Positions 1-37,500 of a stretch of 64,000 bases of DNA are shown here, in pieces. Made by a program: the position numbers and the translations under genes. The stretch covers positions 496,001 through 560,000 of the forward strand of contig PS015009.1 in the NCBI GenBank assembly GCA_048213135.1. Reading direction: 5' to 3'. This stretch comes from Reclinomonas americana ATCC 50394. Lineage: Eukaryota. Each line of letters starts with the position of its first letter. Position 1 is the first letter of the stretch. Below the pieces are notes generated by a model, which worked only from the letters and a program-made list of their open reading frames with translations, had not been told where the DNA came from and did not search any database.

Positions 1-2
1 TG

Positions 3-416
3 GTGGCCGGATTGATCGCTTTCAAATTCACGACCAACTATCTCAGTTCCGACATCGAAAAAATAACAACAGAGAATATCATCTACCAGGCTACACTGCC
101 CGGTATACAGGAGGAGGTCATATTCCGGGGACTTTACCTGGCCCTGCTGGTCAATGCTTTTTCTGAAAGCAGCCAATCATTTCTCCGCGGAACAGGTGTT
201 TATGGTGTACTGCTCATCCTGCTGTTCGCCCTCGTACACGCTGTGGAGATCGGTAACGGGTTTAAGTTTCATTTTAATGTGGTACTGTTTTTCTCTTCCG
301 CGCTGGCCGGTTGGGTGTATACCTGGTTACGACAACGCAGCGGATCACTGGTACCGCCAATCATCGGTCATAATCTTACGAACCTGTCCATCAGCATAGC
401 CCAACTGCTCAAATGA
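3..416 (+). CDS. CPBP/CAAX (Abi) family intramembrane metalloprotease, 5'-truncated by the window edge
   Basis: Motifs QEEVIFRG, FALVH and GHNLTN match the EExxxR / FxxxH / HxxxN signature; hydrophobic helices; stop overlaps the next ATG (ATGA). Confidence 0.9.
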   Translation: MAGLIAFKFTTNYLSSDIEKITTENIIYQATLPGIQEEVIFRGLYLALLVNAFSESSQSFLRGTGVYGVLLILLFALVHAVEIGNGFKFHFNVVLFFSSALAGWVYTWLRQRSGSLVPPIIGHNLTNLSISIAQLLK

Positions 417-3400
417 AGGAGAACAGCACATATGAACATTTTGATTTCGCGGTGCTGAGAACCCCGTTGCTTCCGATGTATACGGCAGTGAACGGGAAAA
501 AACGGTTGTTTATTTCCGATTCGGATGATTATGCTACCTTATTCAGTAAATTATCATCCCCTCACTTTGAAGAAGCATTGCTCATCTCTTCATCTGACCT
601 GTACCAGGAATACCTGAAAATAAAATCCGAAGGCGTTAACGAGGAAAATAAAAGTGCTCTGCGTAAACTGATCTGTTATTTCCTCCGCATGTCGGCACGG
701 GCCACCCCTTATGGTATATCTGCCGGTGTTTCGGCGCTGACCATTAGCGACCAGACCTCAATCCGGATCGGCAATATGGAGGAGCACCGGAAAAAAGCCA
801 GCATCAACTTCGATTACATCACGGGCAAAATGAAAGGGTTGATGAAAGAGGAGGCTTTTGTAAAAAAGCAGACCTACTATGCCAACAATACCGTTTACGT
901 CAACTTTAATGGCATACACTTTAACCGCATCAACCTCCCACCCTATACACAATCCGTAATCGGTTACTCACAGCTGATCATGGACCTCCTCGGTTTTGCA
1001 AAGCATGGCAAACATTTCGATGAGCTGGTCGGCTATATCACCACTGCCCTGCAGCAACCGGCCGACGCAGCAGCAGCTTTCATTATTAAACTGGTCTCGA
1101 TTGAACTGCTGACGCCGGATATTCTGCCTTCGCTTTTTTCAAAAGACATCAATGGCGCTTTCTGGGGCAAACTGAATAACGCCGCATCATTGAATGGATT
1201 GGGTAAAGTTGCCCTGCAAATGGAAACAATCAAACAGGAAAGTATCGGCAACAGCATCGGCACGTTCAAAGACATCACCGAATCTCTTTCACTTGAAGGC
1301 ATAAATAATTACCTGCATTTTACATCTGCCTATTGCCTGGAAGATAACCGGGTTGATGCCCGTGTCGCAAATGATATCAGCAACCTGCTTGTTTTTCTTT
1401 GTAAACTGCGCGGGCAGAAAGGCAATGCCTACCTCCGGCAGTTCACCCGGCAGTTTGAGGAACGCTATGGCGATAAACAGGTATTGCTCGCCGAAGCGCT
1501 TAATGAACGTACGGGTATCGGCTATCCTCCGAGGGCAACACCGTTCATTAAAAATGATATTACCCTTGCTTTAAAGAATATCGATTTCCTGCAATCTCCC
1601 GATGGTCACCAGTGGGACAACTTCATCATCTACCTGCTCAACCGGCGGCGTTCGGTTAACAGTAAGGAGATCATACTTACAGAAGAGGACCTCAGTCTTT
1701 ACAATTGCGGATTAGCGGAAGAGGACCTCAGCAGTTCCCTTTACTGTACGTTCGGACTTATTTCAGAAAAAGAAACAGGCACAAAGGATGGCGAATACCT
1801 CATTGACTTTATGTATGCCGGCGGACCTTCCTGTATCAATTCACTTAACCGGTTTTCGGGATTGGGTGAAGAACTGGGAAGGAATATCGCGGCCTGCGCA
1901 CAGTGGGAGAATGATTATTATAAAGACCAGGGCATTAATCTGGCGGAGATCAATTTCCTGCCCCGCAATGGCATTGCCGGTAATATACTGCAACGCGGCA
2001 ATCCAAGACAATACGAGATACCCATACTCACCTGCCCTACCCCGGGAAAGCACATCATTCACCTTAACCAGGTTTACCTGGGCCTCGAAAACGGTGAACT
2101 CGTTGCCATTGATAAGGAAACCAACGAAAGAATATTGCCGGTAGCAACGGTTTTGTACGATAATCACAACACCAATTCTGTCAGCTTTAACTCCTTTCTT
2201 ACCGATCTCAATCACCAGGAAAAAATATACAACGTTCAGTGGGACTGGGGTAATATGGAGCAGGTGCTGGACCATTTCCCAAGGGTCTGCTTCAGGAATT
2301 GCGTATTGTCCAAAGAAACCTGGGTCATCAGGGTAGAAGAAAGCGGCCAGGCCGGCAGGGAAGCACTCCGATCGCTGCTGCGCCGCCGCAATATTCCTTC
2401 AAGTGTTTATTATATCGAAAAGGAAGATCATTTGCTTTTCCTGAACCTTAATAATGATCCCTGCCTTGACATCCTTGAATCGAAACTGAGAAAATACGGC
2501 AAGGTTACTTTGGTTGAAAACCTTTATACCAAAGAAGGAACTTTTATCGGCAGTCCCTCGGGATATCATGCCAATGAATTCATTCTTCCCCTGCGCTTGG
2601 GCGATGATTGTATTGCCCGAAAAAGAAGTAAGATAAAAGATGCCGGCCGGGCATTATCTTTTTCCACCAACCGAACCCGGGTAAAATTATTTTGTAATCT
2701 TTTACTGGCCGATGAACTGCTCGACAAGTTTACCGGGCATTTCTGCACTGGTCAGCCAGCCAGGCGGTTACTCCATTTTGAAAGGGTGGCGCAATCACCG
2801 CATTTGTTGCTGGTATTGGAAGACGACAGCAATAATCCTCTTACGGCCTCCCTGCTGGAAGAAGTATTCGGAGAGTACATTAAAGTCAGCCACCTGTACA
2901 GGTGGGAGATAAGCGAGGAAACAATCACATGGCCGCATATTCATGTAACCTCGCCGGATTTACAGGAAGCAGTAATGGAACAGAACACTTCCGTGATATG
3001 CGACCTGCTAAAAACAATAAAACCGCTGAAGACGCCGGATCCTTATACACTTCGCCTGCTCTGCCTGGCCGCCTTAACTGTACGGTATATAAAGATCATC
3101 AGCAAAGAAGATGTGGTAACCGCCAAACACCTGGCTGACCTGCTGCTTCAAAAAGTTGGCCGGCACGTAACAAGCGGCGGCGGCGTAATCAGGAAAAAGA
3201 TACTGGCGGGCACTTATAAAAAAATGATTGACCAGGTAGCCGGTCATTACAACTCAGAGATAAAACAGGTTAAAGATGTGATCGATACCCATGTACCATT
3301 AAGCACCCGGTTCGATTTCGGTGAAAAAGAATTACCAGTAACGGAGATGGCCAATATACTGGAAACAATAATACAATTCACCGGCAATAAATTATTGTAC

Positions 3401-3502
3401 GCTGATATGGAGCGAAGCGAATGGCTGGTATTACTTGATTTCTTAAAACAATATTTTCATTACGAACCGGTACTGGCCTTACACAGGAAAATTTCTTTGT
3501 AA
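413..3502 (+). CDS. LanB-like (class I lanthipeptide/thiopeptide-type) dehydratase with a divergent C-terminal elimination domain
   Basis: 1029 aa; LRTPLLP, YFLRMSARATPYG, FEERYG, LAEINFLP, FPRV and ANEFILPL motifs are typical of the glutamylation domain. Confidence 0.85.
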   Translation: MKENSTYEHFDFAVLRTPLLPMYTAVNGKKRLFISDSDDYATLFSKLSSPHFEEALLISSSDLYQEYLKIKSEGVNEENKSALRKLICYFLRMSARATPYGISAGVSALTISDQTSIRIGNMEEHRKKASINFDYITGKMKGLMKEEAFVKKQTYYANNTVYVNFNGIHFNRINLPPYTQSVIGYSQLIMDLLGFAKHGKHFDELVGYITTALQQPADAAAAFIIKLVSIELLTPDILPSLFSKDINGAFWGKLNNAASLNGLGKVALQMETIKQESIGNSIGTFKDITESLSLEGINNYLHFTSAYCLEDNRVDARVANDISNLLVFLCKLRGQKGNAYLRQFTRQFEERYGDKQVLLAEALNERTGIGYPPRATPFIKNDITLALKNIDFLQSPDGHQWDNFIIYLLNRRRSVNSKEIILTEEDLSLYNCGLAEEDLSSSLYCTFGLISEKETGTKDGEYLIDFMYAGGPSCINSLNRFSGLGEELGRNIAACAQWENDYYKDQGINLAEINFLPRNGIAGNILQRGNPRQYEIPILTCPTPGKHIIHLNQVYLGLENGELVAIDKETNERILPVATVLYDNHNTNSVSFNSFLTDLNHQEKIYNVQWDWGNMEQVLDHFPRVCFRNCVLSKETWVIRVEESGQAGREALRSLLRRRNIPSSVYYIEKEDHLLFLNLNNDPCLDILESKLRKYGKVTLVENLYTKEGTFIGSPSGYHANEFILPLRLGDDCIARKRSKIKDAGRALSFSTNRTRVKLFCNLLLADELLDKFTGHFCTGQPARRLLHFERVAQSPHLLLVLEDDSNNPLTASLLEEVFGEYIKVSHLYRWEISEETITWPHIHVTSPDLQEAVMEQNTSVICDLLKTIKPLKTPDPYTLRLLCLAALTVRYIKIISKEDVVTAKHLADLLLQKVGRHVTSGGGVIRKKILAGTYKKMIDQVAGHYNSEIKQVKDVIDTHVPLSTRFDFGEKELPVTEMANILETIIQFTGNKLLYADMERSEWLVLLDFLKQYFHYEPVLALHRKISL

Positions 3503-3530
3503 AGCATAAACGGCATAAAACAACTGATCA

Positions 3531-3977
3531 ATGACAAGAAAGTTATCGGCATCCAACCAGATTGAAGTACGGTTCAATGAAGTGGACTCTTACAATATTG
3601 TATGGCATGGCAACTATGCGGCTTACTTCGAATCAGGAAGGCAGGCTTTTTCCAACAAGTACGGCCTGGGGCAGAAAGAAATGATGGAAGAGGGATTTTA
3701 CCTGCCGCTTACCAAACTTGATTTCGAATTTAAAGGTCCGCTGCTGTATAACGACCGTGTCAACGTCATTACCTCTTACCGGGACTGTTTTGAAGCAAGG
3801 CTGCTGTTCGATTATGAAGTGTACCGCATATCCGACGATAAACTGGTTTGCAGGGGCACAAGCGAGCAGGCCATTGTGGGGCTCGACTGGAAGATCAGGA
3901 TATTCCCCCCGGCTTACCTGGTAGCCTGGAAGAAAAAATGGCTTGTTGAAGAAACCGTTAATAACCACATCGATTAA
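3531..3977 (+). CDS. Acyl-CoA/acyl-ACP thioesterase (4HBT/YbgC hotdog fold)
   Basis: VRFNEVDSYNIVWHGNYAAYFESGR motif. Confidence 0.9.
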   Translation: MTRKLSASNQIEVRFNEVDSYNIVWHGNYAAYFESGRQAFSNKYGLGQKEMMEEGFYLPLTKLDFEFKGPLLYNDRVNVITSYRDCFEARLLFDYEVYRISDDKLVCRGTSEQAIVGLDWKIRIFPPAYLVAWKKKWLVEETVNNHID

Positions 3978-3988
3978 AAATACGAACC

Positions 3989-5254
3989 ATGAGCGTAAGC
4001 TACTCCATTGAGAAAGTTGAGTCATCCTCCAAAGAGCCGTTGTATGTGCTGACCGTTGCAGACAGTAAAGTGTTTTATGTGGGTGAGCTTATCTGCCGGA
4101 TCATTGAAAAACTCGCGGAAGGAAAATCGAAGAACCAGATACAAAATGACCTGAATGAGCAATTCAGGGGATTGCACGAGTTCAATAAGGCGCAGATAGA
4201 TCATATCGTAGATGAGAAGATCGCCAAACTGGGCATTTTCGGGAAAGGCGGCGATGTTGCCAGGTCGACCAACTCCCCGCTTTCCAACATAAAAGGGAAA
4301 TGGACCATTACCACGTTTGAGATGATCAAACCGCTTTTGAGTGTAATGCAATATCTTTTCCGGCCTACCACCTACCTGGTGTTGTTCATTGCCTTGCTGG
4401 CCATTAACAGCTATTACATGTATATTGTTTTTACCCAGCATATACAAACCGTGAACCACATCACCAACCTGAAAGGCTGTGGAAAGGGCATGGATTTCCT
4501 GCTGATGTTCTACCCCTGCGCTTTCCTCATACTGTACATGCATGAATTGGGCCATGCTGCCGCCTCATATTGTTTTAAGGTGATCCCAAAAAATATCGGC
4601 ATGGGTTTTTACCTCATCTTTCCTGTGCTGTATACAGAACTCAATGGAGTGTGGAAGTTATCCAGGACAAAAAGAACGATCATCAATACCGCCGGCATAT
4701 TTGTTCAACTCCTGCTGAACCTTATTCTTATCGCCATCGTGTTCAATGTATCAGGCGACACCTCTAAAAAGGTTTCCCAATACCTGATACAGATGAACAT
4801 ATTTACCATGCTCCTGAACATAAACCCGTTCCTCAAATTCGACGGTTACTGGATACTGAGCGATCTTTTCAAATTTCCCAACCTCCGCCAGCAATCCAAT
4901 TATTATATCATAAAAGCGATCAACTTCCTTTTCCCGAAGATCAAGCTGAAGGTTCCGCCACAGGTGGAGGCCATTGTAAGACCACGGAATCTTTTCCTGA
5001 TCATATATTCCCTGCTCAAGTATTGCTTTATCGGTTATATACTCTATGCGCTTCCGCGGGGTGCCATCTTATCTGTAGCAAAAATGTACGAACTGGTGAG
5101 TTATAACCTCATTCAGCAACACGATTACTCTACCTGCACCATTGAAGCGATCGTTAAAACAGGCTTCGGACTATTCATCATAGGCTATTTCCTGTCTAAA
5201 CCCCTGCAATCAGTCGTACAGGTAATTGCACAAAAAGTAAAAAAACGCTCATGA
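3989..5254 (+). CDS. M50 (site-2 protease) family peptidase with an N-terminal RRE/PqqD-like domain
   Basis: HELGH zinc motif; NINPFLKFDGY (NxxPxxxxDG); several TM helices; soluble ~85-aa N-terminus. Confidence 0.85.
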   Translation: MSVSYSIEKVESSSKEPLYVLTVADSKVFYVGELICRIIEKLAEGKSKNQIQNDLNEQFRGLHEFNKAQIDHIVDEKIAKLGIFGKGGDVARSTNSPLSNIKGKWTITTFEMIKPLLSVMQYLFRPTTYLVLFIALLAINSYYMYIVFTQHIQTVNHITNLKGCGKGMDFLLMFYPCAFLILYMHELGHAAASYCFKVIPKNIGMGFYLIFPVLYTELNGVWKLSRTKRTIINTAGIFVQLLLNLILIAIVFNVSGDTSKKVSQYLIQMNIFTMLLNINPFLKFDGYWILSDLFKFPNLRQQSNYYIIKAINFLFPKIKLKVPPQVEAIVRPRNLFLIIYSLLKYCFIGYILYALPRGAILSVAKMYELVSYNLIQQHDYSTCTIEAIVKTGFGLFIIGYFLSKPLQSVVQVIAQKVKKRS

Positions 5255-6486
5255 ACGGATTCCTGACCTATCGTATGTCGCCTTTCCTGAACATCCAGGA
5301 AGTGGAGAATGGCGGCGAGAAGCTGAAAGTTTTCAACTATATCTCCGGGCGTACTTTTGAGCTGGGCACTAAAGCTGTTGAAATACTGCGTTATTTCCGG
5401 AAACCGCATACCATTCCGGAAATGAGCGATCATTTTGAACTGGAGAAAAGCACGGCACAGAGTGTGGTGGAAAACCTGTTGCAGGTAAAACTGCTGCTGG
5501 AACAGGGAAAAGAGGATGAGTTCGCGAAAGAGATCACTTTACCGGCTCAAACCCTGTTTGGCGTACCCGAAAAAGTTTCACCGCTTAACCGGGATGGTGA
5601 AAAAAGAATACGCTTTACCGGCATTCCTTTTGGAAGAGGAAATGATATCGGTTACGGTACAGAAGATTTTCCCGATCACCTCCGGAGCAAGACCCATTAC
5701 CTTCATTTTACACCAACGAATGTTGAGCACATCAATTTCGACTTTCTCGACGGTACCGGAAGCGGCGGTAACCTCAGCTCACTTTTTAAAAAAGAAAGGG
5801 TGACCGATGCCGGTAATATCTTCATCGATTTCAGTGAGTCAACGGATTTTATTTATGAGAAGATCGCCGACATTTCGGCCGACCTTTTCCGTTCGGGCGA
5901 TATCCCATTCTTCATCGGCGGCGATCATTCCATTACCTACCCTATTGTAAAAGGGGCCGCGGAAATACATGAACGTTTTTCCATCCTTCATTTTGACGCA
6001 CACTCCGATACTTCTTTCAGCAAATACGATAAAATAAAACATGTCCGTAAAACATCACACACCCATGCCAATGTGATCAGCCGTTGTATGGAACTGGAAG
6101 CGGTGGAAGCGGTCTATCATTTCGGGTTAAGGGGTATCACCAACCGTTTCGTTACGGAAGACCCCGGGCAAAAAATTTGCTGGGCTGCGGACACAGACGC
6201 GGTTATAAGCGGGCGCCAGGCAATTGAGCTCGACAGATCGCAGCGGTATTATATCACCATTGATATTGATGTCATTGATCCTTCCTATGCACCCGGCACC
6301 GGAAGCCCCACCATCAACGGAATCAGTCCGCGGCAGTTGTTTGACCTGATGAAGAAATTGTTGCCCGGGCTGGACATTATTGGCGCTGATATCGTGGAAG
6401 TAAATCCGTCAAAAGACCCGTCGGGCATTACTACGCAAACCGCCACGGAAGTGATCCTGCACCTGATGAATTACATGTACAAATGA
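5251..6486 (+). CDS. Arginase/agmatinase (ureohydrolase) family protein with an N-terminal RRE-like winged-helix extension
   Basis: GGDHS, FDAHSD, DIDVIDP, PGTGSP and DIVEVNP motifs; about 85 extra N-terminal residues. Confidence 0.9.
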   Translation: MNGFLTYRMSPFLNIQEVENGGEKLKVFNYISGRTFELGTKAVEILRYFRKPHTIPEMSDHFELEKSTAQSVVENLLQVKLLLEQGKEDEFAKEITLPAQTLFGVPEKVSPLNRDGEKRIRFTGIPFGRGNDIGYGTEDFPDHLRSKTHYLHFTPTNVEHINFDFLDGTGSGGNLSSLFKKERVTDAGNIFIDFSESTDFIYEKIADISADLFRSGDIPFFIGGDHSITYPIVKGAAEIHERFSILHFDAHSDTSFSKYDKIKHVRKTSHTHANVISRCMELEAVEAVYHFGLRGITNRFVTEDPGQKICWAADTDAVISGRQAIELDRSQRYYITIDIDVIDPSYAPGTGSPTINGISPRQLFDLMKKLLPGLDIIGADIVEVNPSKDPSGITTQTATEVILHLMNYMYK

Positions 6487-6544
6487 TACATCCCGCAATG
6501 GGGCTGATGAAACAGTGAATGAGAAGCGGGACTGGGGATGCTCC

Positions 6545-7414
6545 TTATTTACATTTATAGGAGAACAATATTTTGCTTTTGGTGGCCGGTATACTGAACT
6601 GGTCGTCGCCGTTCATCACTACGCTCAGCACATAGTTATCGCGGCTGAGCACATAAGTGCCGAATGCGGAAACGGAAGAATCCCCCCTCACCACGTTACC
6701 CGGGTCGTAATTCCTTACCACCATATTTTTCACACCATTGGAAGGGCGGTTACCGAAGTTGTAGAACTGCGTAAAGTTTTGCAGTATCCTTTCATCGGGA
6801 AAAATATAAATAAACCTTTTGGGTATGATGTTGGTGTAATAGCTCACATCCGCGTCGGTAACCAGGTCGCCGGTAAAGGCGTCTGTGGCCGTCATATGGG
6901 TAATGTTGTTGTTGGTATAGGTATAGGTCACCACGTAATAATCAATGGCGGGAGCACTGCTCAGGCGATAGTGTTTATCGGTAAGATAGCCCGCGCTGTT
7001 GTATACATAATAAACATCGTACTGTGGCGATGTGGGATCGGAAGGATCGATAAGGCCATGGAATTTATTTACCCTTTTGGTGAACAGGTCGGTCACGAAG
7101 TACTGATCAGGGTCAATAAAAACGGTATCGTTGGAATATACAGGTTGTGCATTGAAATCAAGTACAAAAGCGAGACTGTCGAAGCGGCTGATGTCAACGG
7201 CATTATCCTGTGTATTAATGATCGCCGCCAGGGAACCAATGCCAACGCCGGTAGCGCTGTCGGTATATACCATTTTGCTGATGCGGCAGTCCACACCAAC
7301 GATCAGCGGGTTATTGGTACCGTCTCCCGTATTCTCTGTACTGTATTCTTTTTCACAGGAGTAAAGTCCTGCAGCAAGAAGGAGGATAAGGGAGTATACA
7401 GTTAATCTTTTCAT
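6545..7414 (-). CDS. Lipoprotein of unknown function, beta-rich
   Basis: Lipobox LYSC followed by EKE; Tyr/Asn/Thr-rich. Confidence 0.8.
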   Translation of the reverse strand: MKRLTVYSLILLLAAGLYSCEKEYSTENTGDGTNNPLIVGVDCRISKMVYTDSATGVGIGSLAAIINTQDNAVDISRFDSLAFVLDFNAQPVYSNDTVFIDPDQYFVTDLFTKRVNKFHGLIDPSDPTSPQYDVYYVYNSAGYLTDKHYRLSSAPAIDYYVVTYTYTNNNITHMTATDAFTGDLVTDADVSYYTNIIPKRFIYIFPDERILQNFTQFYNFGNRPSNGVKNMVVRNYDPGNVVRGDSSVSAFGTYVLSRDNYVLSVVMNGDDQFSIPATKSKILFSYKCK

Positions 7415-7506
7415 CTCTTTATTTTCTGATTGCTCTGTTAAATAACGTATTTTATTTTCTGCTGTTGCCCGTTTGCCGCAATTAGCATACCATAATTAAC
7501 ATCTTT

Positions 7507-9579
7507 TTATAACTGGGCCTTGAATTTGCCGTTGGTTACGGTAAAGCTGACAGCAGACAAATTGATCACTGTTCCGCTGAACGTTCCCTGTATAATGCCA
7601 TTAACGGTGTCATAAGTTGTTACAGTTGCGCTCAGGTTGGTCAGCCCCGAGCCGGCCAGTGAGAAGAACTGCGTTGTGTTATAGGAAAAGTTCACATACT
7701 TGCCGCTGCTGGAAGTACCGGAATAACCTCCGGTTGTTATATTTCCTGCCGAATTGAACAGATCGATATTGAGGTTGCCACCGGATGTTGAGAATATATT
7801 CAGTTGTTGTGATCCGCCGAGGTCAAAAAGGATAGCGCTGCAATCACCTTCATATTTAGTGGCCCCAACAGTAAACTCCCATTTCAGATCGGTTGGCGGC
7901 GGTGTGGTACCCACTGTTACATCAAAATTGCAGGAGCCCAGTGTAAAGCTGTTGGTACCCGCTGTGGTTGGATTGCCCGTACCATTCAGTATAACGGTTT
8001 GTACACCGGTGGTACCGAATACACCACTCTTGCTGAACGTCATGCCGCCCTGCGTGGTGGTGAGTGTATAGGTACCGGTAGAAGTTACGTTCACACCAAC
8101 ACTGACTGTATTACCCGCAGTTAAAGCCGTACCCACGGTATAAGTTCCGTTTACGGTAATCGCCCCGCAGTTGATGGTATAAGCCGCTGCAGGCGGGGCG
8201 GTAACCGGTACAGAGAAAGTACAGGTGCTGCCTGCGCCATTATTGGCTGTATAATTATTGGTACCCACGGAGGCAGGTGTGCCAGTGCCTGTCAGTACAA
8301 CAGTCTGCACGCCTGTGCCGGCGAAAATGCCCGTCTTTGAAAATGAAATACCATTTACAGAGTTGGTGGTAATGGTATAAGCACCGGCCGTAGTTACGTT
8401 CACCTGCAGGCTTACTGTATTGGAAGCGCCGAGCGGGTTGCCGGTATAATAAGATCCTGCCAGCACAGCACCGGAACATGTTCCCGGAGCTCCCTGCAAT
8501 ACATAGGATGCAGGCGGCGGCGGTGGATTATAGTTCACGCTGAAAGTACAGGAAGTGCTTCCCGTACCGCTGCTGATCACATGATTGAATGCGCCCGCCG
8601 CGGCTGGTGTGCCATTGCCGGTAAGCGTAATCGTTTGTGGTCCCAGCGTGGTAAAGTTGCCGGAACCGGCGTATGTAACACCATTAACCGGCGCGGTGGT
8701 AAGGCTGTAAGAGCCCAGCGCAGTAACAGTAGCGCTTACCGTAACCGTGTTGGCAGCAGTAAGCGGTACGCCCTGGATATAAGTCCCCGCAAGCACAGCG
8801 CCGGTACAGTTACCCGGGCTGCCGCCCAATGTATAGGCGGAAGTACCCGGACCAGGCGCATTGGTATGAACAGTAAAACTGCAATTACCTGTTGGAACGG
8901 TTGCGGTATAATTGAAATCGCCTTCGGCCATGGGTGTACCCGACGCGGTGAGGGTAACGCCCTGCGTACCGGTGGTGGTAAATACACCACTGCCGGAGAA
9001 AGTAATACCGTTCAGTGAATTGGTGGTTACCGTATAGGTGCCGAGCGTGGTCACGTTCACCACAAAATTGACGAAGTTGGTATTATCAGTCGTAGTGCCC
9101 GCCTGGTAAGTACCGCCAAGCGTGAAACCCGTACAGTTACTGCCTGCGCCGCCGAGTGTATAGATGGCCGCACCGGTGGTTGTACCAAAAACAGTGATAT
9201 CGAAAGTACAGATGCTGGTACCGAATTGTATGGTGAAGGTTGACGTTCCTGCCGCGGTGGGTTTACCGCTGGCATACAAACGTATCGTATTAAGACCGGC
9301 TCCTACGGTGCCGGATTTACTGAATGAAAAACCATTGATGGTATCCGATTTGATATCGAAAGCGCCGATATTGTCGGCGGTCAGCTGTACATCCACATAA
9401 TGATCGGAAGTGAGCACACTGTCTACCCGGTAAATGCCATTCACGGCGATGGGAGCACAATTGCCGGCGCCATCTTTCTGAAACCTGCCGGTAACCACAT
9501 CGGAAGTCAGTTCTTTATTACATGCGCCCAGCAGCAGGGCCAGCAGCATCATTCCCAGGAACCAGTGTAATCTTTTCAT
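7507..9579 (-). CDS. Surface lipoprotein with five ~110-aa Cys-paired beta repeats and a distinct C-terminal domain
   Basis: Lipobox LGAC-NKE; repeats of C..GTY..G..NTV..VNVT..G.Y..NG..FS..G..Q..L..GTP..C.F.V. Confidence 0.85.
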   Translation of the reverse strand: MKRLHWFLGMMLLALLLGACNKELTSDVVTGRFQKDGAGNCAPIAVNGIYRVDSVLTSDHYVDVQLTADNIGAFDIKSDTINGFSFSKSGTVGAGLNTIRLYASGKPTAAGTSTFTIQFGTSICTFDITVFGTTTGAAIYTLGGAGSNCTGFTLGGTYQAGTTTDNTNFVNFVVNVTTLGTYTVTTNSLNGITFSGSGVFTTTGTQGVTLTASGTPMAEGDFNYTATVPTGNCSFTVHTNAPGPGTSAYTLGGSPGNCTGAVLAGTYIQGVPLTAANTVTVSATVTALGSYSLTTAPVNGVTYAGSGNFTTLGPQTITLTGNGTPAAAGAFNHVISSGTGSTSCTFSVNYNPPPPPASYVLQGAPGTCSGAVLAGSYYTGNPLGASNTVSLQVNVTTAGAYTITTNSVNGISFSKTGIFAGTGVQTVVLTGTGTPASVGTNNYTANNGAGSTCTFSVPVTAPPAAAYTINCGAITVNGTYTVGTALTAGNTVSVGVNVTSTGTYTLTTTQGGMTFSKSGVFGTTGVQTVILNGTGNPTTAGTNSFTLGSCNFDVTVGTTPPPTDLKWEFTVGATKYEGDCSAILFDLGGSQQLNIFSTSGGNLNIDLFNSAGNITTGGYSGTSSSGKYVNFSYNTTQFFSLAGSGLTNLSATVTTYDTVNGIIQGTFSGTVINLSAVSFTVTNGKFKAQL

Positions 9580-9613
9580 TGTTGTGTTCTGTATTGATTG
9601 GTGATGTATATCG

Positions 9614-11266
9614 TCAGAATATCGCTATCCTGGTGGTTTCAAATTCCTGTGTCGTGCTCAGCTGGAGATTATCCAATTTATCATAAATAAGACCAAAACC
9701 TTTGGCATACCATCTTTCTTCTTCAGCCACAGCAATATCGCCCAGGCCTATATTAGCGAGGTAGGTATATTTCACTTTAATGACCCTGGTGTAGGTATTC
9801 CCGGCCACGGTAGCGCTTACACCTTTGGCGATGATCTCCGCGGTAATTTTCGCGGTAAGCGGTATACCGCCCGAGCTGTTGCTGCCCAGGTTATCGGTCC
9901 AGGTAGCGCCCACATTCAGTGACGAGTCCAGCAGTTTGATTTCTTTATTGATGGGATTGTCGAGTAAGCCGAAGTCGCCATCGAGGAACTGGTAATACGA
10001 GTTGACCGCTTTACGCTGGTACAGCGAATCGGTGGGTGTGCCGGTATCGAGTGTTTCGAAGATACGGTATACCTGGCCTGAAAAGGTTTTGGTATCGGTG
10101 CTGGCTTTTATATAAGTGGTGTCGCCTGGTGCTCCGCCAACGAGCCTTGCCGACCAGTTGCTGAATGGTGTTTGCGGTAAATAATCGAGGTTGGTCACCG
10201 GTGGCGGTGTGGTGCCGGAACTGGTAATGGAAAAAGTACAGTTGCTGCCCGGCGCTGCGGCGGTATAGTTGAAAGTGCCAGCAGCTGTTGGTGTACCGCT
10301 GGCATCAAGTACGATGGTTTGTACACCTGTGGACGTAAAGGTCCCGTTCTTGCTGAACGAAATGCCATTCACCATGGCGGCGGTAATACTGTAGGTGCCG
10401 ATGGTGGTTACATTTGCTTTGAGGCTTACGGTATTGGTAGCATTGGTAGCTGTGCCGGCAGTATAGGTTCCGTTGGAAACAGCGCCTGAACAGTTGCCGG
10501 GGCTGCCTTCAAGCGAGTATACAGCCGATCCGGAGCCTGCGGGTAATACAGTAATATCATAGCTGCAGGTGGTGCCTGCATTGGAAGGCGTGAAAGCGAA
10601 TGTTCCGCCTGCAACCGGTGTTCCCGAAGCCTGCAGGGTAATGCCTTGTGTACCGGTAGTGGTAAAACCGCCCGAACCGCTGAACGTAATGCCGTTCACC
10701 GTGGTGGTGGTTAAACTATAGGTGCCGATGGTGGTCACGTTCACGGAAAAGTTCACCCAGTTGGTGGCGTCGGTGGGTATACCGGCAGTATACGTACCGT
10801 TAACGGTGAAACCCACGCAGTTGCCGGGTGAGCCGTCGAGGGTAAAGATGGCGGCGCCGGTACTGGGACCAAAAACGGTAACATCAAAAGTACAGGTGCT
10901 GGTGCCGAAGGTAACGGTGAAAGTATGGGTGCCTGCGGCGAGTGGTTTACCGCTGCCCAAAAGCCGTATGGTATTGAGACCGGTACCCATGGTGCCCGTC
11001 TTGCTGAAGGAATAACCGTTGATGGTGTCGGATTTAATCTCGAAAGTACCGCCGTTAACGGCATTCACCTGCACATCTACAAAATTGTCAGCTTTAAGGG
11101 TGCTGTCTACCCGGTAGATGCCGTTGATCGTAACGGGAGCACAGTTACCTGCTCCGTCTTTCTTAAATGCCCCGGTAGCTATGCCATCACCTTCCAGTTC
11201 CTTCTGGCAGGCGGAAAAACCCGCCACTGCCACGGCCAGCCCCAACAACCATTTAAGCAGTCTCAT
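9614..11266 (-). CDS. Surface lipoprotein paralog with three of the same repeats and a different C-terminal domain
   Basis: Lipobox FSAC-QKE; first repeat closely similar to that of 7507-9579 (KDGAGNCAP..NGIYRVDS). Confidence 0.85.
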   Translation of the reverse strand: MRLLKWLLGLAVAVAGFSACQKELEGDGIATGAFKKDGAGNCAPVTINGIYRVDSTLKADNFVDVQVNAVNGGTFEIKSDTINGYSFSKTGTMGTGLNTIRLLGSGKPLAAGTHTFTVTFGTSTCTFDVTVFGPSTGAAIFTLDGSPGNCVGFTVNGTYTAGIPTDATNWVNFSVNVTTIGTYSLTTTTVNGITFSGSGGFTTTGTQGITLQASGTPVAGGTFAFTPSNAGTTCSYDITVLPAGSGSAVYSLEGSPGNCSGAVSNGTYTAGTATNATNTVSLKANVTTIGTYSITAAMVNGISFSKNGTFTSTGVQTIVLDASGTPTAAGTFNYTAAAPGSNCTFSITSSGTTPPPVTNLDYLPQTPFSNWSARLVGGAPGDTTYIKASTDTKTFSGQVYRIFETLDTGTPTDSLYQRKAVNSYYQFLDGDFGLLDNPINKEIKLLDSSLNVGATWTDNLGSNSSGGIPLTAKITAEIIAKGVSATVAGNTYTRVIKVKYTYLANIGLGDIAVAEEERWYAKGFGLIYDKLDNLQLSTTQEFETTRIAIF

Positions 11267-11298
11267 GTAATTGTTATTATGGAATAAAGATAAGTGTT

Positions 11299-12006
11299 TT
11301 ACGAGACCTGCGATTCATCGTTCACCAATGCCCCGGTTTCTACTGTATGACTTTGCTGGTCCTTATTTCGCTGCCTGAAAAACCTTTTCTGGAAAACCAG
11401 TATGGTGAGTACGCCGGTGGTAATGGAGGCGTCGGCAATATTAAATATCGGCCGGAAAAATTCAAAGTCCTGCCCGCCCCAGAAAGGCACCCAGGAAGGG
11501 AAAGTACCCCTGAAAACGGGGAAATACAGCATATCCACTACGTTGCCATGCAGGAAGGATGAATACCCCCTTGACGAAAATTTGGCCAGGTAAGGCTGCA
11601 TATCATTAGCTATTACATTATACATATTAGTGGCGGGGTCCATCCCCTTGTCAAAGATCATACCGTAAAAACAGCTGTCTATGAGGTTGCCCAGCGCTCC
11701 GGCATATACCAGCCCGGCACAGATAATAAAGCCTTTGTGGTATTTTTCTTTGATGATCTTACCGAGGTACCAGGTACCAAAGATCACCGCCAGCAGCCTG
11801 AAGATGGTCAGCGCCATTTTGCCCAGGTTACCCCCGAATTTCCAGCCATAGGCCATACCCGGATTTTCCACGAAATACAACTGGAAACGACTGCCGATCA
11901 CGTTATGATGTTCATTAAGTCCGTAATGGGTCTTGATCCAGATTTTAAGCACCTGGTCGGCGGCTACAATAAGAAAAATAATAAAGGCTATATGTCTTGC
12001 TTTCAT
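11299..12006 (-). CDS. lspA: Lipoprotein signal peptidase II
   Basis: DQVLK, ENPGMA, GALGNLID, VVDM and FNIAD motifs. Confidence 0.95.
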   Translation of the reverse strand: MKARHIAFIIFLIVAADQVLKIWIKTHYGLNEHHNVIGSRFQLYFVENPGMAYGWKFGGNLGKMALTIFRLLAVIFGTWYLGKIIKEKYHKGFIICAGLVYAGALGNLIDSCFYGMIFDKGMDPATNMYNVIANDMQPYLAKFSSRGYSSFLHGNVVDMLYFPVFRGTFPSWVPFWGGQDFEFFRPIFNIADASITTGVLTILVFQKRFFRQRNKDQQSHTVETGALVNDESQVS

Positions 12007-12070
12007 AATCGGTGTAAAGATATGGGTTTAGGAGATGTGAGATGCAGGAGACAGGATGCCGGATAACACA

Positions 12071-12093
12071 TTCGTAATTGATAATTCGTAATT
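12071..12093. repeat. Heptamer ladder TTCGTAA-TTGATAA-TTCGTAA
   Basis: Read directly; the same motif occurs at 56664-56691 and, reversed, at 63194-63214. Confidence 0.7.
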
Positions 12094-12098
12094 ATTTA

Positions 12099-14615
12099 TC
12101 ATTCTTCATAATACACCCGTTTCACCCTTTGCGATATACCGGTGAGTATCTCATAAGCGATCGTCTGCGCCCCCCGGGCCATGTCGCTCACGGACAGCTG
12201 TTCACCAAAAACGATCACCTCATCACCTTCCCGGGCATCGGCGCCGGTTATATCCAGCATCGTCATGTCCATACACACATTGCCGATCACGGGAACCAGG
12301 CTGCCGTTCACCCACATCTTCCCTGTCCCGTTGCTCAGCAGCCTCGGGTAACCGTCGGCATAACCGATACGTACTGTGGCAATAATGGAATCTTTTGTGG
12401 CTACGCCTTTGCGGCTGTACCCTACACTGTCTCCTGCCTTCACCCTTTTTACCTGCGAAATGGTGGTCTTTAATGTTGTTACGTTGCGCAACTGCTGCTG
12501 CATGGCGGCATTGCCATCAACGCCGTACAGGCCAATGCCCAGGCGCACCATGTCAAACTGCAATTGTTTATGCCGGTGAATGGCGGAGGTATTGGCAATA
12601 TGGCGGATGAAGGGATAACCTATCGCTTCTTTCAACTGATCCGAAGAAGCGATGAATGACGCGGCCTGCGCCTGTGTAAAGCCATCATGCTCGGCGGCAT
12701 CGCTGGCAGCCAGGTGCGAAAACACGGATTGTATTTTGAAAGCCTGTGTTTGCCGCAAACGGTTACAGAGTTCTCCTATATCGGATGGTTCAAAACCCAG
12801 GCGGCGCATACCGGTGTCCAGTTTTATGTGTACCGGATAGTTGCGTATGCCCAGCGCATTCAGGTATTGTTCAAACGCGTTCCAGATGGAAAAAGCGTAC
12901 AGTTCGGGCTCCAGGTTGTGCTGCACCATGACGTCGAAGCTGCTTTCCTCGGCGTTCATTACCATGATGGGCAGACTGATGCCTGCTTTGCGCAGCTCCA
13001 CGCCTTCATCGGCATAGGCCACAGCGAGGTAATCTACTTTATGGAACTGCAGCAGGTTGGCGATCTCGAAACTGCCGCTGCCATAACTGAAGGCTTTCAC
13101 CATGGCCATCAGTTTCACCCCGGGATCGAGCTGCTGCTGGTATTGCCTGAGGTTATGGGTTATGGCGTTGAGGTTGATCTCGAGTACGGTTTGGTGCACT
13201 TGCTGTTCGAGCAGGTGAACGATCTGTTCAAAGCCAAATACCCGTGCGCCTTTCAGCAGGATGGTCTCCTGGTTGAAATGCAGGGAATGGAACTGCTGCC
13301 TGAATTCAGCTGTCGATAAAAAGAAAGCGGTCTGCGGTATGTTGTCAAATAATGATTGCCAGCGGCTGATGGCGGGACCAATACCAATAAAGCGGTTGAT
13401 CTTTTTTTGCCCGATGATACCGGCCACGGCTTTATACAACGCTTCTTCATCTTTACCTGATTGCAATATATCACTGAGGATAACAGTACGTTTGGGATAC
13501 TGTTGCTGCTGCTGCAAAAAGTCGAGCGCTATGGTAAGTGAATTGATATCGGCACTGTAACTGTCGTTGATCACCGATGTATGGTTGATGCCCTGTTTCA
13601 GCTCCAGCCGCATTTCCACGGGCTTCAGCCTGGCCATCCTCTCCCTGATCAGGTCGGTGGCTGTACCCATGTAGCAGAGTACGGCACAGCAGGTAATGGC
13701 GTTGGCAATGGAAGCTTCATCAGTAAAGGGTATGGTAAAACTGAACTGTTCACCGGGCGGAAAAACAGAACCTGCCGGCGCATTGTATATCATTTCAAGC
13801 GTGGTCTTCCCCGCCTTTCTTTCCATACGAATCATTTTCAGCCGGCAATCGCTGTTGATGGCTGTACCCCAGGGAAAGAGTGCTGTAGTTCCTTCAGGAA
13901 ATATTTGTTGCAACTCCCGGTTGAGCAGGGGATTTTCCGCTCCGTAAATAAGCACTTCGGCGCTGGTGAACAGTTTCGCTTTTTCACTGATCTTTTGCTC
14001 CATGCTGCTGAAGCCTTCATCATGCGCTTCGCCGATATTGGTGAATACGCCAATGGTAGGTTGTATCACCTGCTGCAGGTGTTCCATTTCACCGGGCTGT
14101 GAAATACCGGCTTCAAAAATGGCAAGGGTATGCGTTTCATTCATCTCCCACACACTCAGGGGTACACCCGTTTGCGAATTATAACTCCTGGGACTGCGTA
14201 CAATTACATAGTCATCCTGCAACAGTTGACAAAGCCATTCTTTCACGATGGTTTTGCCATTACTTCCGGTGATGCCGATAACGGGAATGGAGAAACGCTT
14301 ACGGTGATGAGCGGCTACCGCCTGTAACGCCAACAGTACATTTTCAACCAATAAAAAATTGGCGCCGGGAAACGATGCGGCCTGTTGTGATGAGAAGTGG
14401 CTGTCCACAATAAAAACACGTACGCCTTTCTGGTACAGCTCCTCAATAAAAGCGCCCCCGCTCCTGCGTGGTCCGCCGAGAGCAAAAAAGGCGGTACTGC
14501 CGGGGAACAATAATTTGCGGCTGTCAGTCAGCAGGTGTACCACTTCCACCGGTTCGCCTTCCTGCAGCGCCCGGGCATTGATGACCGTTCTTATTTCGTG
14601 CGTGTTGTAAGCCAC
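12099..14615 (-). CDS. alr: Bifunctional MurF-like / alanine racemase
   Basis: GITGSNGKT P-loop; INDSYS; MVKAFSYGSG (PLP lysine); GYADG; CMDM; GTG start. Confidence 0.95.
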   Translation of the reverse strand: MAYNTHEIRTVINARALQEGEPVEVVHLLTDSRKLLFPGSTAFFALGGPRRSGGAFIEELYQKGVRVFIVDSHFSSQQAASFPGANFLLVENVLLALQAVAAHHRKRFSIPVIGITGSNGKTIVKEWLCQLLQDDYVIVRSPRSYNSQTGVPLSVWEMNETHTLAIFEAGISQPGEMEHLQQVIQPTIGVFTNIGEAHDEGFSSMEQKISEKAKLFTSAEVLIYGAENPLLNRELQQIFPEGTTALFPWGTAINSDCRLKMIRMERKAGKTTLEMIYNAPAGSVFPPGEQFSFTIPFTDEASIANAITCCAVLCYMGTATDLIRERMARLKPVEMRLELKQGINHTSVINDSYSADINSLTIALDFLQQQQQYPKRTVILSDILQSGKDEEALYKAVAGIIGQKKINRFIGIGPAISRWQSLFDNIPQTAFFLSTAEFRQQFHSLHFNQETILLKGARVFGFEQIVHLLEQQVHQTVLEINLNAITHNLRQYQQQLDPGVKLMAMVKAFSYGSGSFEIANLLQFHKVDYLAVAYADEGVELRKAGISLPIMVMNAEESSFDVMVQHNLEPELYAFSIWNAFEQYLNALGIRNYPVHIKLDTGMRRLGFEPSDIGELCNRLRQTQAFKIQSVFSHLAASDAAEHDGFTQAQAASFIASSDQLKEAIGYPFIRHIANTSAIHRHKQLQFDMVRLGIGLYGVDGNAAMQQQLRNVTTLKTTISQVKRVKAGDSVGYSRKGVATKDSIIATVRIGYADGYPRLLSNGTGKMWVNGSLVPVIGNVCMDMTMLDITGADAREGDEVIVFGEQLSVSDMARGAQTIAYEILTGISQRVKRVYYEE

Positions 14616-34539: not shown

Positions 34540-37500
34540 ATGAAGATGATTTTCCGGGCTTTGCCGCAACTGATCATACTGCTACTGATACTGGTTGTCA
34601 GTCAAGGGCAGACCTTGTATCCGTCGCCGTACAGCGGCAGTGCAAAAGTGAATTATATCAGGACCTGGGATGCTACCTCCCCCCAATCCAATGCGGATAC
34701 ACTGGTGGGCAGAACGATCAAGGATGTTAAGCAGACCACCCAATATTTCGACGGACTGGGGAGGCTGCTGCAAACGGTGATAAAACAAGGGTCGATGCTA
34801 ACAGGCTATTCGGCATTCGACCTTGTGCAACCTGTAAGCTATGATCAGTTGGGCAGGGAAAAATATCGGTTCATGCCTTTTGTTGCCAATTATACCGGCG
34901 GTAATACGTCTGTTAATGATGGGTATTTCAAATTAAATCCTTTCCAGCAAGATTCCGCTTTCAATAAGCTACAATACAAATTGGACGCTTATTATTATTA
35001 CAGCCAGGTAAATTATGAAGTTTCTGCCATGAACCGGGCGCTGGAGGCTTTTGCTCCTGGCGAGAACTGGGTAGGGACGGCATCAGAAAGTATAGATACT
35101 AACAGGAGGTCAGTAAAAACAAGATATTGGTTCAATACGATTGCTGATTCTGTAAGGATCTGGAATGTGACCCATGTGTCCAACAGCTTTGGAACATATG
35201 CCAGCAGCAGCCTATACCCGGCCGGCGCTTTATCAAAAATGGTATCTATTGATGAGCAAAACAACCAGGTCGTTGAGTTTAAAGATAACGAAGGAAAGGT
35301 CATCCTGAAAAAGATACAACTTACTGCCGCCCCCGACACAGGAACCGGCAAGGGCTATACTGGGTGGCTAAGTACCATATATGTTTACGATGACTACAAC
35401 CGCCTGCGTTGTGTGGTGCAACCTAAGGGTGTAGAATGGCTGGCTGCTAATAGTTGGACTTTCAGCAGCTCGGATGTGTTGAATGAGCTGTGTTTCCGTT
35501 ATGAGTACGACGGCAGAGGAAGGATGATCCTTAAAAAAGTACCCGGCGCCGGTACGATTTATATGGTCTATGACGTCAAGGATCGCCTGGTAATGGTACA
35601 GGATTCGATTACGAGAAGCAATCATAAATGGACTTATAGTCAGTATGACGAGCTGAACCGATTAATTACCACAGGGCTGGTCACGGACAATACCAATTAC
35701 AATAACGCCGCTTATCACCGGGCACAAGCATCGGTTAGTAATGCCTATCCCGATACTTCATCTTATACAAACGAAGTGCTTACCCGCACTTTTTATGATG
35801 ATTACAGTTGGCGATCTGCAGAAGGCAACCCCCTCAGCGATACCCGCAGTACAACGTACGATAGTTATTTACAAACTCCCTCCAACTCAACCTGGCCCTA
35901 TCCCCAATCTGTTAACCAGTCAGTACAAGTAAGGGGTATGGTAACCGGAACAAAAACTAAAGTGTTGGGTGTAACCAACACTTACCTGTACGGGGTGAAC
36001 TTTTATGACGAAAAGGGAAAATTGGCGCAGGTGCAGAGTACCAACATAGCAACCGGAACAGATATCGTTACCACGCAGTATGGCTTTATCGGGCAGCCGT
36101 TGGTATCCGTTATTAAGAATGAAAAGCCCGGTACGAATGCACAGACCAATATCGTATTGACGAAAATGAGTTACGACAACCTGAACCGGCTGTCGAAGAT
36201 CGAGAAAAAGATATCCAATACACTGGTCAACGGTGGCAGTATGCCAGGGAGCTGGACGACCACGATGGAAAATGAATACAACTCATTAGGACAGTTGCGA
36301 AATAAAAAGCTCGGGGATAACCTGGAATCACTTGAATACACTTATAATGTAAGAGGATGGCTAACCGGTATCAATCAAAACTATGTAAGTGGAAGTACAA
36401 CTCATTGGTTTGGTCTTGACCTGGGGTATGATAAGGATACCTATGTTTCGTTCAGCAACAAACAGTATAATGGTAATATCGCAGGGATGATCTGGAGAGC
36501 AAGGGGGAATGGAGTACGGTGCAAGTATGATTTCATTTACGACAAAACCAATCGCCTTACTAAAGCCGATTGGTCGGGTGGCCCCAATTCAGCAAATGAT
36601 GTGGCGCTATGGGCGGCTGAAGATTATAATGTAAAAGGGATCACATACGATGCCAATGGTAATATCCTTACCCTGACTCAAAAGGGATTGCTTTTCACCA
36701 GTAATATGACAATTGATTCACTGAGCTACAGCTACCTCAGCAACAGCAATAAGCTCATGCGGGTAACTGATGGAATTGTTGATCCCGATACACGGCTAGG
36801 CGATTTCAAAAATGGAACCAATGGCAGCGATGATTACAATTATGACGGTAATGGAAATATGATGTCGGACAGCAATAAGCATATCCAGTCCATTACCTAT
36901 AACCTGCTTAATCTGCCACAAACCATCACCGTGTCGGGTAAGGGTACTATTGAGTATCTCTATGATGCCACTGGTAATAAACTGGAAAAGAAGACAATAG
37001 AAGGATCAAAGATCACAACGACAAAATACGTCAACGGCTTTGTGTATCAGAATGATACATTGCAATATACCGCTCATGAAGAAGGTAGTATACGTTTCGT
37101 GAAAAAGTATTATCTTAACGGCGATAGTACTCAAGCACTGTACTATAATTATTTTTTAAAAGACCACTTGGGCAATATAAGAACCGTGCTCACTGAACAG
37201 CAGGATACCGCGAAATACATAGCCTCCTTTGAAGCGGCTTACCGTACAAAGGAGAATGCGCTATTTTATAATATCGATGAAACCTCCAAAGCGGTTTCCG
37301 CCGTGCCGGGTTATCCCACCGACAATACCACATCGCCTAATGATTCCACTTCCGAGTTGAAAGGGAATGGTCATGCCGTTGGTGCAGCGATCACATTAAA
37401 AGTAATGGCAGGGGATAAATACGATCTGGGGGTTAAATCCTTTTACAACAATTTCATCCCCCGCAATGCCTATAATATAGGAGACCAGATCGTGGAAGCC

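Follow-up and report, generated by a model that had tools for sequence, protein, structure and literature searches.

A conserved, very rare five-gene block from Bacteroidota, with a LanB homolog and a putative RRE-fused arginase, is probably part of a cluster for a lipidated peptide

We analyzed a window of 64,000 nucleotides from contig PS015009.1 (positions 496,001 to 560,000 of the forward strand; assembly GCA_048213135.1, Reclinomonas americana ATCC 50394), and this report concerns the five genes at its left end, positions 3 to 6486. In our judgment they are probably the 3′ portion of a larger Bacteroidota cluster, conserved and very rare, for a peptide made by the ribosome and then modified after translation (RiPP), most plausibly a lipidated one. 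The five plus-strand open reading frames (ORFs) are tightly packed and encode, in order, the C-terminal part of a CPBP/CAAX-type protease (3 to 416), a LanB-type protein (413 to 3502; P0002), a hotdog-fold thioesterase (3531 to 3977), an M50-type metalloprotease (3989 to 5254; P0004), and a ureohydrolase of the arginase type (5251 to 6486; P0005). The last two proteins each carry an N-terminal domain that we take for a putative RiPP recognition element (RRE). The first gene is cut by the left edge of the window, its 5′ part lying outside. Start and stop codons overlap as ATGA at 413 and 5251, as read from the sequence, and the coordinates give gaps of 28 bp and 11 bp at the other two junctions. 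An earlier note on this DNA had described this layout, including the convergent end at 6486, and all of it was confirmed from the sequence.

Scanning metagenomes for related clusters yielded three loci, L001 (on a 67-kb contig that continues for about 50 kb further upstream), L002, and L003. L001 carries all five homologs in the same order, with identities of 41% for the CPBP protein, 38 and 32% for the LanB pieces, 51% for the thioesterase, 56% for the M50 protease, and 45% for the arginase. L002 is 92.9% identical to L001 at the DNA level over 10.9 kb and shows the same left half. L003 was rejected as a relative: its LanB is distant and of the ordinary kind, and the other four genes are missing from the locus. 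Since the five genes and their order recur in L001 at 38 to 56% protein identity, sequence comparison indicates that the arrangement is not due to chance; the earlier note had named a failure of these genes to co-occur elsewhere as grounds for dropping its reading, and that objection falls away. A further hint of co-occurrence comes from homologs of the arginase and the M50 protease, whose longest contigs were of equal size in six cases (68313, 12306, 7808, 65540, 14835, and 17760), with LanB in two; equal sizes would mean that the genes sit on the same contig.

How rare this block is can be judged from its LanB protein. A word-based search found 18 LanB relatives among 7999 scored candidates, and only P0006 (95%), P0007 (42%), P0008 (38%), and the fragment P0009 (38%) were close. 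An exhaustive search of 1.84 billion representative proteins returned 4877 LanB-type proteins at an E value of ≤0.001, among them the same four close relatives plus P0279. The next match outside the clade was P0267, a full-length LanB with PF14028 that is 28% identical and the nearest canonical LanB. In L001, a frame change near 11690 divides the LanB gene (9983 to 12993) into two ORFs, of 569 aa and 434 aa, and these are the lengths of the P0009 and P0279 records, respectively. The LanB clade is thus very rare, with four lineages (the window and P0006, P0007, P0008, and L001/L002) in 1.84 billion representatives. Genome contigs scanned with P0002 and with the clade alignment gave no relatives among 15 and 360 pattern matches, respectively, a result that is pattern limited and no proof of absence, and a scan of viral contigs with the clade alignment gave 0 of 278.

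Near-identical DNA nevertheless occurs in several metagenome studies that are unrelated to one another, so that material for testing is available. At least half of the sampled words were matched in seven runs, and the stretch, whole or in part, appeared in 20 rows that came from 13 studies, with labels that included bioreactor and moss metagenomes. Two DNA runs (X1 and X2) were more than 99% alike to window positions 1 to 7600 and continued to the left of position 1, by 613 nt in X1 and about 2.5 kb in X2, where the contig concerned covers window positions 1 to 2769. Two metatranscriptome libraries from one biofilm study (X19 and X20) covered 29 and 28 of the 30 bins of positions 1 to 7600, respectively, at 90 to 99% likeness, and a strain about 93% identical exists in that study. 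We did not accept the X19 and X20 contigs as evidence of transcription, as the convergent lipoprotein gene was covered too and DNA carry-over is possible.

The LanB-type protein (1029 aa) matched PF04738 (Lant_dehydr_N) over residues 49 to 688 (E = 5.4e-87) and gave no match to PF14028. Its layout is that of an intact-looking tRNA-dependent glutamylation domain (residues ∼1 to 740) followed by what appears to be a degenerate, Lant_dehydr_C-like elimination domain (residues ∼745 to 1029; positions 2645 to 3499, plus strand), recognized in an alignment of five clade members with six canonical LanBs. The closest solved relative was MadB (9g04 [PMC12241602]; E = 8.4e-28 over residues 42 to 739), and MibB was also among the best. 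The glutamylation residues Y89-x2-R92-x3-R96-x-T98 are invariant in the five-sequence clade alignment and are spaced as in NisB Y80, R83, R87, and T89, which matter for dehydration (PMC4341554); residues were mapped to NisB by motif and spacing, without direct alignment to NisB. (This paper, PMC9486935, PMC11962472, PMC12703449, PMC13647313, and bioRxiv 10.1101/338681 are cited throughout from extracts.)

No Pfam family was found in the last 285 to 340 residues, and PF14028 gave no match at an E value of ≤10 in the excised C-terminal 340 aa; it was undetected in P0007 and P0008 as well. Other comparisons connect this region to the elimination domain. PF14028 was present in the cluster of every one of the 30 ESM-feature matches of the C-terminal domain (best score, 0.96), hhalign against 12 canonical LanBs gave a colinear alignment of positions 5 to 1013 with 2 to 1042, and BLASTP of the domain matched P0267 (8e-4) inside the PF14028 region of that protein. 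We read the last 285 to 340 residues as a probable diverged elimination domain.

The residues on which elimination depends are gone from it. In place of RxR there is LxV, within PHLLLVL (residues 796 to 802), with hydrophobic pairs at this place across the clade, and the ERYGG motif, with its arginine, is absent from all five clade members. HMxxNR has become QFTGNK (residues 988 to 993), the histidine being replaced by Q, Q, E, E, and A in the five sequences. Compared with six canonical LanBs, the counterparts of NisB R784, R786, R826, and H961 are all replaced in five of five clade members, and GNK(L/F)L and LDF(L/I)(K/R)QY are newly conserved. In NisB, R784 and R786 bind the glutamyl carboxylate and R826 activates the alpha-proton (PMC9486935), and the H961A substitution alone abolishes dehydration (PMC4341554). 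This LanB homolog therefore seems to have kept transfer and lost canonical elimination, and ordinary dehydration is doubtful because all known lyase residues are gone in the five clade members. The earlier note had called the protein a LanB-like enzyme, which holds for its homology and its glutamylation residues and is doubtful for LanB chemistry. A separate 1036-aa LanB-type protein, P0268, is 31% identical to P0002 and is likewise without detectable PF14028; there may have been repeated decay of the lyase half, or the clade may extend beyond four lineages.

The full length of this LanB, its colinear two-domain layout, and its conserved glutamylation residues are what an ordinary class I lanthipeptide cluster would show, and LanB systems are common in Bacteroidota. 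The usual Ser/Thr dehydration would then take place, a LanC and a Cys-rich precursor would be encoded further left, and the arginase, thioesterase, and proteases would be extras. We consider this improbable, given that the lyase residues are replaced in every clade member, one of them at a position where substitution alone is enough to stop NisB, and that PF14028 is undetected in three of these proteins. Nor was any LanC found among the 10 flanking L001 proteins scanned, which stop short of the left end of the cluster, and window positions 1 to 11266 hold neither a LanC nor a Cys-containing precursor. The protein resembles NisB, MibB, and MadB in length class, N-terminal domain, glutamylation motif, and colinear C-terminal domain and departs from them in its lyase residues, and the locus departs from class I lanthipeptide clusters in the absence of LanC from the relatives' flanks scanned.

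A LanB clade without usable lyase residues is also what would be expected of an enzyme that adds without eliminating, as the peptide aminoacyl-tRNA ligases (PEARLs) and other small LanBs do. Here, a small scaffold peptide would receive an amino acid that the LanB homolog takes from an aminoacyl-tRNA. Guanidine hydrolysis and acylation would remodel this residue, and the RRE-fused membrane protease would free a small lipo-amino-acid-like product, the scaffold being recycled. The 3-thiaglutamate pathway follows the same logic, with a small LanB and a leader-motif membrane protease that releases the product (bioRxiv 10.1101/338681). The common ground would be a tRNA-dependent LanB-type enzyme presumably adding without eliminating and a membrane protease with leader recognition, and an acyl branch together with an arginase could conceivably make an ornithine-lipid-like molecule. 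PEARLs, however, typically lack an elimination domain and need ATP, according to the extract of PMC11962472, whereas a colinear degenerate domain of about 285 aa is retained here. Moreover, the sequence adjoins full-length LanBs: its nearest relatives outside the clade are of this kind, such as P0267, with PF14028 present in six of the nine proteins scanned, and its best solved relatives, MadB and MibB, are true dehydratases. We therefore regard a scaffold pathway of this sort as unlikely.

The last gene of the block encodes a 411-aa ureohydrolase (PF00491, E = 2.7e-53, residues 120 to 405) with about 115 extra N-terminal residues ahead of the arginase fold. It has the motifs GGDHS (residues 223 to 227), DAHSD (249 to 253), and DIDVIDP (338 to 344), and its full binuclear-manganese ligand set (H226, D249, H251, D253, D338, and D340) is invariant in 40 family members. 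An AlphaFold2 (AF2) model built on a 40-sequence alignment had a pLDDT of 89.6 and a pTM of 0.90, and its best fold matches were agmatinases (7lba, 8.9e-22, with a TM-score of 0.79 on the target), followed by other guanidine hydrolases. P0005 is not an agmatinase equivalog, scoring 143.9 against a cutoff of 174.3 for TIGR01230. About 40 sequence clusters of 388 to 442 aa share the same architecture; one of them is named to species (Sungkyunkwania multivorans), and all are uncharacterized. A search of viral contigs with the arginase alignment gave 54 loci, which we rejected as ordinary viral agmatinases, since they matched the catalytic domain only (query residues from 101).

Searching with the full-length model returned ureohydrolases only, and we therefore modeled the N-terminal domain alone (pLDDT, 79). 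The model shows a small sheet (strands at residues 7 to 9, 13 to 17, 24 to 29, and 34 to 39) followed by three helices (40 to 48, 55 to 62, and 66 to 78). In the fold search, 23 of the 31 listed rows were RiPP enzymes or RRE proteins, and 5 of the 31 were unrelated hydroxylases or methyltransferases. The RRE-type matches were TbiB1 and lasso B1 with leader bound, TruD/LynD, PqqD, MibB, McbB, MccB, ThcOx, CteB, TbtB, and PbtF, with TM-scores of 0.57 to 0.64 on stand-alone RREs. The arginase N terminus (residues ∼7 to 84; positions 5269 to 5502, plus strand) is likely a PqqD-like RRE fold, which may bind a leader.

The earlier note had proposed a peptide arginase, and the arginase fold, the complete manganese site, and the RRE-like domain agree with this. 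Its family is nonetheless PF00491 and not that of OspR, PF12640: P0005 matched PF00491 only, PF12640 was faintly detected in 2 of 40 family members (best E value, 0.025), and the 60 best solved relatives of P0005 did not include OspR. OspR-type enzymes belong to the same ureohydrolase superfamily and would carry out the same proposed reaction on peptidyl-Arg, but they show the motifs DXHXD and EEH(N/H)EAF together with LDIDLDYFSC (PMC12703449), whereas P0005 has DAHSD and DIDVIDP and no EEHxEAF. The peptide arginases of landornamide, selidamide, and related RiPP pathways are PF12640 proteins, and the PF00491 exception is KgrD of the enteropeptin pathway, a manganese-dependent arginase acting on a RiPP (both according to the extract of PMC12703449). 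KgrD, which resembles P0005 by description, differs in serving a Firmicute sactipeptide-type pathway.

The second enzyme with a putative RRE is the metalloprotease (421 aa; 3989 to 5254), whose match to Peptidase_M50 (PF02163, 2e-6) is barely above the cutoff, at 27.7 bits versus 27.2. It has a soluble N-terminal domain (residues ∼1 to 95), HELGH at residues 185 to 189, NINPFLKFDG at residues 277 to 286, and three strongly hydrophobic 19-mers; we take HExxH and NxxPxxxxDG in hydrophobic segments to be motifs of the site-2/M50 family of intramembrane proteases. Its best NCBIfam match was daptide_HExxH (NF041824; 6.3e-24), aligned from residue 5 (protein residues 5 to 312 on profile positions 5 to 302 of 379) and scoring 84.8 bits against a cutoff of 300, and it matched YydH/LiaK (NF058609) at 3.1e-14, with 53.2 bits against a cutoff of 225. 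A profile of the M50 N-terminal domain from 30 homologs aligned with that of the arginase N-terminal domain over 44 columns (hhalign probability, 78%; E = 1.8e-5). Homology to RRE-fused daptide peptidases suggests that this domain, too, is an RRE. The RRE labels of the earlier note, which Pfam does not give, are thus backed by predicted structure and fold search for the arginase and by the daptide profile match from residue 5 for the protease. With the daptide protease MpaP and the epipeptide proteases YydH/LiaK it has in common an RRE placed N-terminal to an HExxH intramembrane protease; it differs in scoring far below the equivalog cutoffs, and the block has no decarboxylase, aminotransferase, or radical S-adenosylmethionine epimerase. 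Its named homologs come from Lewinella sp., Spirosoma terrae, Arcicella sp., and Fibrella sp.

The proposal that the product is lipidated comes from the relatives' upstream genes. In L001 and L002, the order starts with a carrier-protein tail (seen in L002; PP-binding at 19.5 bits versus a cutoff of 20.8), a protein of 401 to 425 aa with a lipid-A acyltransferase domain, an AMP-binding ligase, and a phosphopantetheinyl transferase. It continues in L001 with a FabZ-like dehydratase, a FabF-like ketosynthase, a TonB-receptor-like outer membrane protein, a 217-aa secreted protein, a medium-chain dehydrogenase/reductase (MDR)-type reductase, and the CPBP gene, and a FabG-like short-chain dehydrogenase/reductase lies downstream of the arginase. 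The Pfam matches in L001 were Lip_A_acyltrans (PF03279), AMP-binding, ACPS, FabA, ketoacyl-synt, ADH_zinc_N, and adh_short, and the NCBIfam matches of the FabZ-, FabF-, and FabG-like proteins were all below cutoff. A cispentacin-type pathway (AmcH/AmcF/AmcE) was rejected for these genes, its matches being far below cutoff and weaker than or similar to those of generic FabF/FabZ. The TonB-receptor-like protein (CarboxypepD_reg plus Plug) and the 217-aa secreted protein, which has no family, occupy positions 5249 to 8212 of L001, between the ketosynthase and the reductase, and may help to export the product or take it up. When the last ∼60 residues of the acyltransferase were compared with the arginase RRE profile, they aligned over 58 columns with a probability of 67% and an E value of 5.4e-5. 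A lipidated peptide is suggested by the relatives' type II fatty acid synthase (FAS)-like genes and by the RRE-like tail of their acyltransferase.

There is precedent for such a combination in the selidamides kamptornamide and phaeornamide, in which a pathway arginase makes ornithine and the amine handle so formed is then fatty acylated (PMC13647313 and PMC12703449). Selidamide pathways, however, use a PF12640 arginase and a GCN5-related N-acetyltransferase (GNAT) that draws on the host fatty acid pool, whereas the arginase here is an RRE-fused PF00491 enzyme and the relatives have a PF03279 acyltransferase and FAS-like genes of their own. No GNAT was found in the window block or in the L001 flanks, where the PF03279 acyltransferase stands instead.

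These same FAS-like neighbors, together with the lack of a precursor, would also fit a pathway that is not directed at a peptide at all, for example, one in which a guanidino-lipid is trimmed by an amidinohydrolase and the LanB homolog and proteases are unrelated neighbors or relics. PF00491 enzymes normally act on small guanidines, and agmatinase, guanidinobutyrase, and proclavaminate amidinohydrolase supply the best fold matches of P0005. Against this stand the RRE-like folds fused to both arginase and protease, and the ATGA translational coupling and the gene order conserved at ∼40 to 55% identity, which argue for a single pathway. To our knowledge, moreover, no non-peptide substrate has been described for any LanB homolog. 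We give a small-molecule or lipid pathway very little credence.

The reading that we prefer, a RiPP cluster for a lipidated peptide, can be put together as follows. A leader-bearing precursor, encoded outside the window, would be docked by the RRE domains. The LanB homolog would esterify Ser/Thr using an aminoacyl-tRNA (Glu-tRNA by descent), and the ester would be kept, passed on, or eliminated by a component outside our view; because the Arg/Arg/Arg/His set is lost clade-wide, it is probably not eliminated by the LanB homolog itself. The RRE-ureohydrolase would hydrolyze a peptide-bound guanidine, turning Arg into Orn and urea. In the relatives, the carrier protein, ketosynthase, FabZ-like dehydratase, enoylreductase, ketoreductase, AMP ligase, and phosphopantetheinyl transferase would build an acyl chain, which the lipid-A-type acyltransferase with its RRE-like tail would load onto a peptide amine, most obviously that of the Orn side chain; the window's hotdog thioesterase would be part of this acyl branch. 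The RRE-M50 protease would remove the leader at the membrane, and the CPBP protease would make a second cut or trim the product, or else provide self-protection or immunity.

Several results weigh against this reading, and the chief of them is the missing precursor, the main weakness of every peptide reading. The earlier note had expected the precursor and any LanC to the left of the window. In the relatives that can be read there, the 10 kb upstream of the LanB gene hold FAS-like genes and no LanC, and no precursor was found either in these regions of L001 and L002, where the genes abut and leave no free space, or in the window. The RiPP assignment is thus in part upheld, by the RRE folds on two enzymes, the LanB homolog, the two membrane proteases, and the conserved gene set, and for want of a precursor it remains something that we infer. 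The FAS-like part, for its own part, is seen only in relatives at ∼40% identity and not for the window itself, and the acyltransferase tail compared with the M50 N-domain profile gave a probability of 1%. The evidence for the RREs is uneven: a single match in the N-domain fold search (TigE, 6.4e-5) reached an E value of ≤0.001, Pfam PqqD (PF05402) gave no match in the excised N-terminal domains of the arginase and the M50 protease (E ≤ 10), and it matched 0 of 40 arginase-family members (E ≤ 0.1). Every NCBIfam match of the block proteins and of the L001 FAS-like genes is below its curated cutoff. As for the LanB homolog, its elimination domain alone reached an hhalign E value of 2.5e-4 with a probability of only 43%, which is weak taken by itself, and the L001 copy may be broken or misassembled. 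Loss of the lyase residues is also no proof of lost activity, since a difference at the Arg826 position is already found in syn-eliminating lyases (PMC9486935).

A bolder version of the lipidated-peptide reading would have the LanB descendant act as a pure tRNA-dependent aminoacyl-transferase whose ester is put to use. Combined with the RRE-guided PF00491 arginase and an acyl carrier protein-dependent, RRE-tagged lipid-A-type acyltransferase, it would define a new class of lipidated ribosomal peptides in Bacteroidota, with the acyl group attached either to ornithine derived from Arg or to the amine of the residue that the tRNA delivers. In its extreme form, a small ornithine-lipid-like molecule would be built up on a scaffold peptide that can be used again, and the RRE-M50 protease would release it. 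We offer this version as speculation that is rather unlikely to be right as a whole.

If these assignments are correct, they would add three new points to RiPP enzymology. An agmatinase-type (PF00491) ureohydrolase would have been recruited to peptides by a fused RRE, giving a second, leader-guided route to ornithine, and a natural LanB would have kept its tRNA-dependent transfer half while its lyase half decayed. Such a LanB would stand between true dehydratases and PEARLs and would bear on the divergence of both enzyme types. Lipidation, too, would rely on FAS-like genes dedicated to the pathway and on an acyltransferase of the lipid-A type instead of GNATs, which all lipo-RiPPs named in the extract of PMC13647313 use. 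The earlier note had not recognized the gene combination from characterized clusters, and our literature search agrees: we found no description of an RRE-fused PF00491 arginase, of a LanB whose lyase domain has decayed, or of the combination, although supplementary tables of arginase or RRE surveys could list such entries.

The remaining two genes of the block encode proteins of familiar types. The fragment at positions 3 to 416 (plus strand) encodes the last 137 aa of an Rce1-like intramembrane glutamic protease of the CPBP/CAAX type (PF02517, 1.5e-13; NCBIfam CPBP_Sphingo, 1.4e-25, at 90 bits against a cutoff of 225). It contains EEVIFR (residues 37 to 42), FALVH (75 to 79), and HNLTN (123 to 127), which we take to be CPBP family motifs, and its L001 homolog is 257 aa long. 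The gene at 3531 to 3977 (plus strand) encodes a 148-aa hotdog-fold acyl thioesterase of the 4HBT/YbgC type (PF13279 [4HBT_2], 2.8e-11; PF03061, 7.2e-5), with NCBIfam matches to MenI_Staph (7.4e-20) and YbgC/FadM TIGR00051 (2.5e-15), both below cutoff.

To the right of the block, the plus-strand ORF at 6515 to 7405 (296 aa) was rejected as a sixth gene; lying opposite a lipoprotein gene, without a family and of implausible composition, it is in all likelihood a shadow ORF. Since the next real gene (6545 to 7414, minus strand) encodes this lipoprotein, with a signal peptide and a lipobox-like Cys, the convergent end at 6486 is real and is the right border of the cluster. A scan for sigma-70 promoters and terminators, based on a model ill suited to Bacteroidota, gave nothing usefully above shuffled sequence. 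Beyond the lipoproteins lie lspA, a MurF-alanine racemase fusion, TerC, an ABC auxiliary/ABC-2 pair, and a protein with a type IX secretion system (T9SS) sorting domain, and gene content of this kind, including the T9SS sorting domain protein, identifies the host of this DNA by sequence as a member of the Bacteroidota.

Some features of this right-hand region deserve mention in their own right. Three consecutive lipoprotein genes (289, 690, and 550 aa, with no Pfam family) occupy positions 6545 to 11266 of the minus strand, where the G+C content is 0.50 to 0.55, versus 0.44 to 0.47 in the cluster. The two larger lipoproteins are paralogous, with near-identical N-terminal regions of ∼140 aa and Thr/Gly-rich repeats of ∼100 aa. 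The fusion protein encoded at 12099 to 14615 (minus strand; 838 aa) joins a Mur ligase domain to a complete alanine racemase. Finally, positions 34540 to 38841 (plus strand) encode a 1433-aa DUF6443/RHS-repeat protein, preceded by proteins of 512 and 1061 aa and followed by one of 234 aa, all without a Pfam family, and this neighborhood looks like a polymorphic-toxin-type locus.

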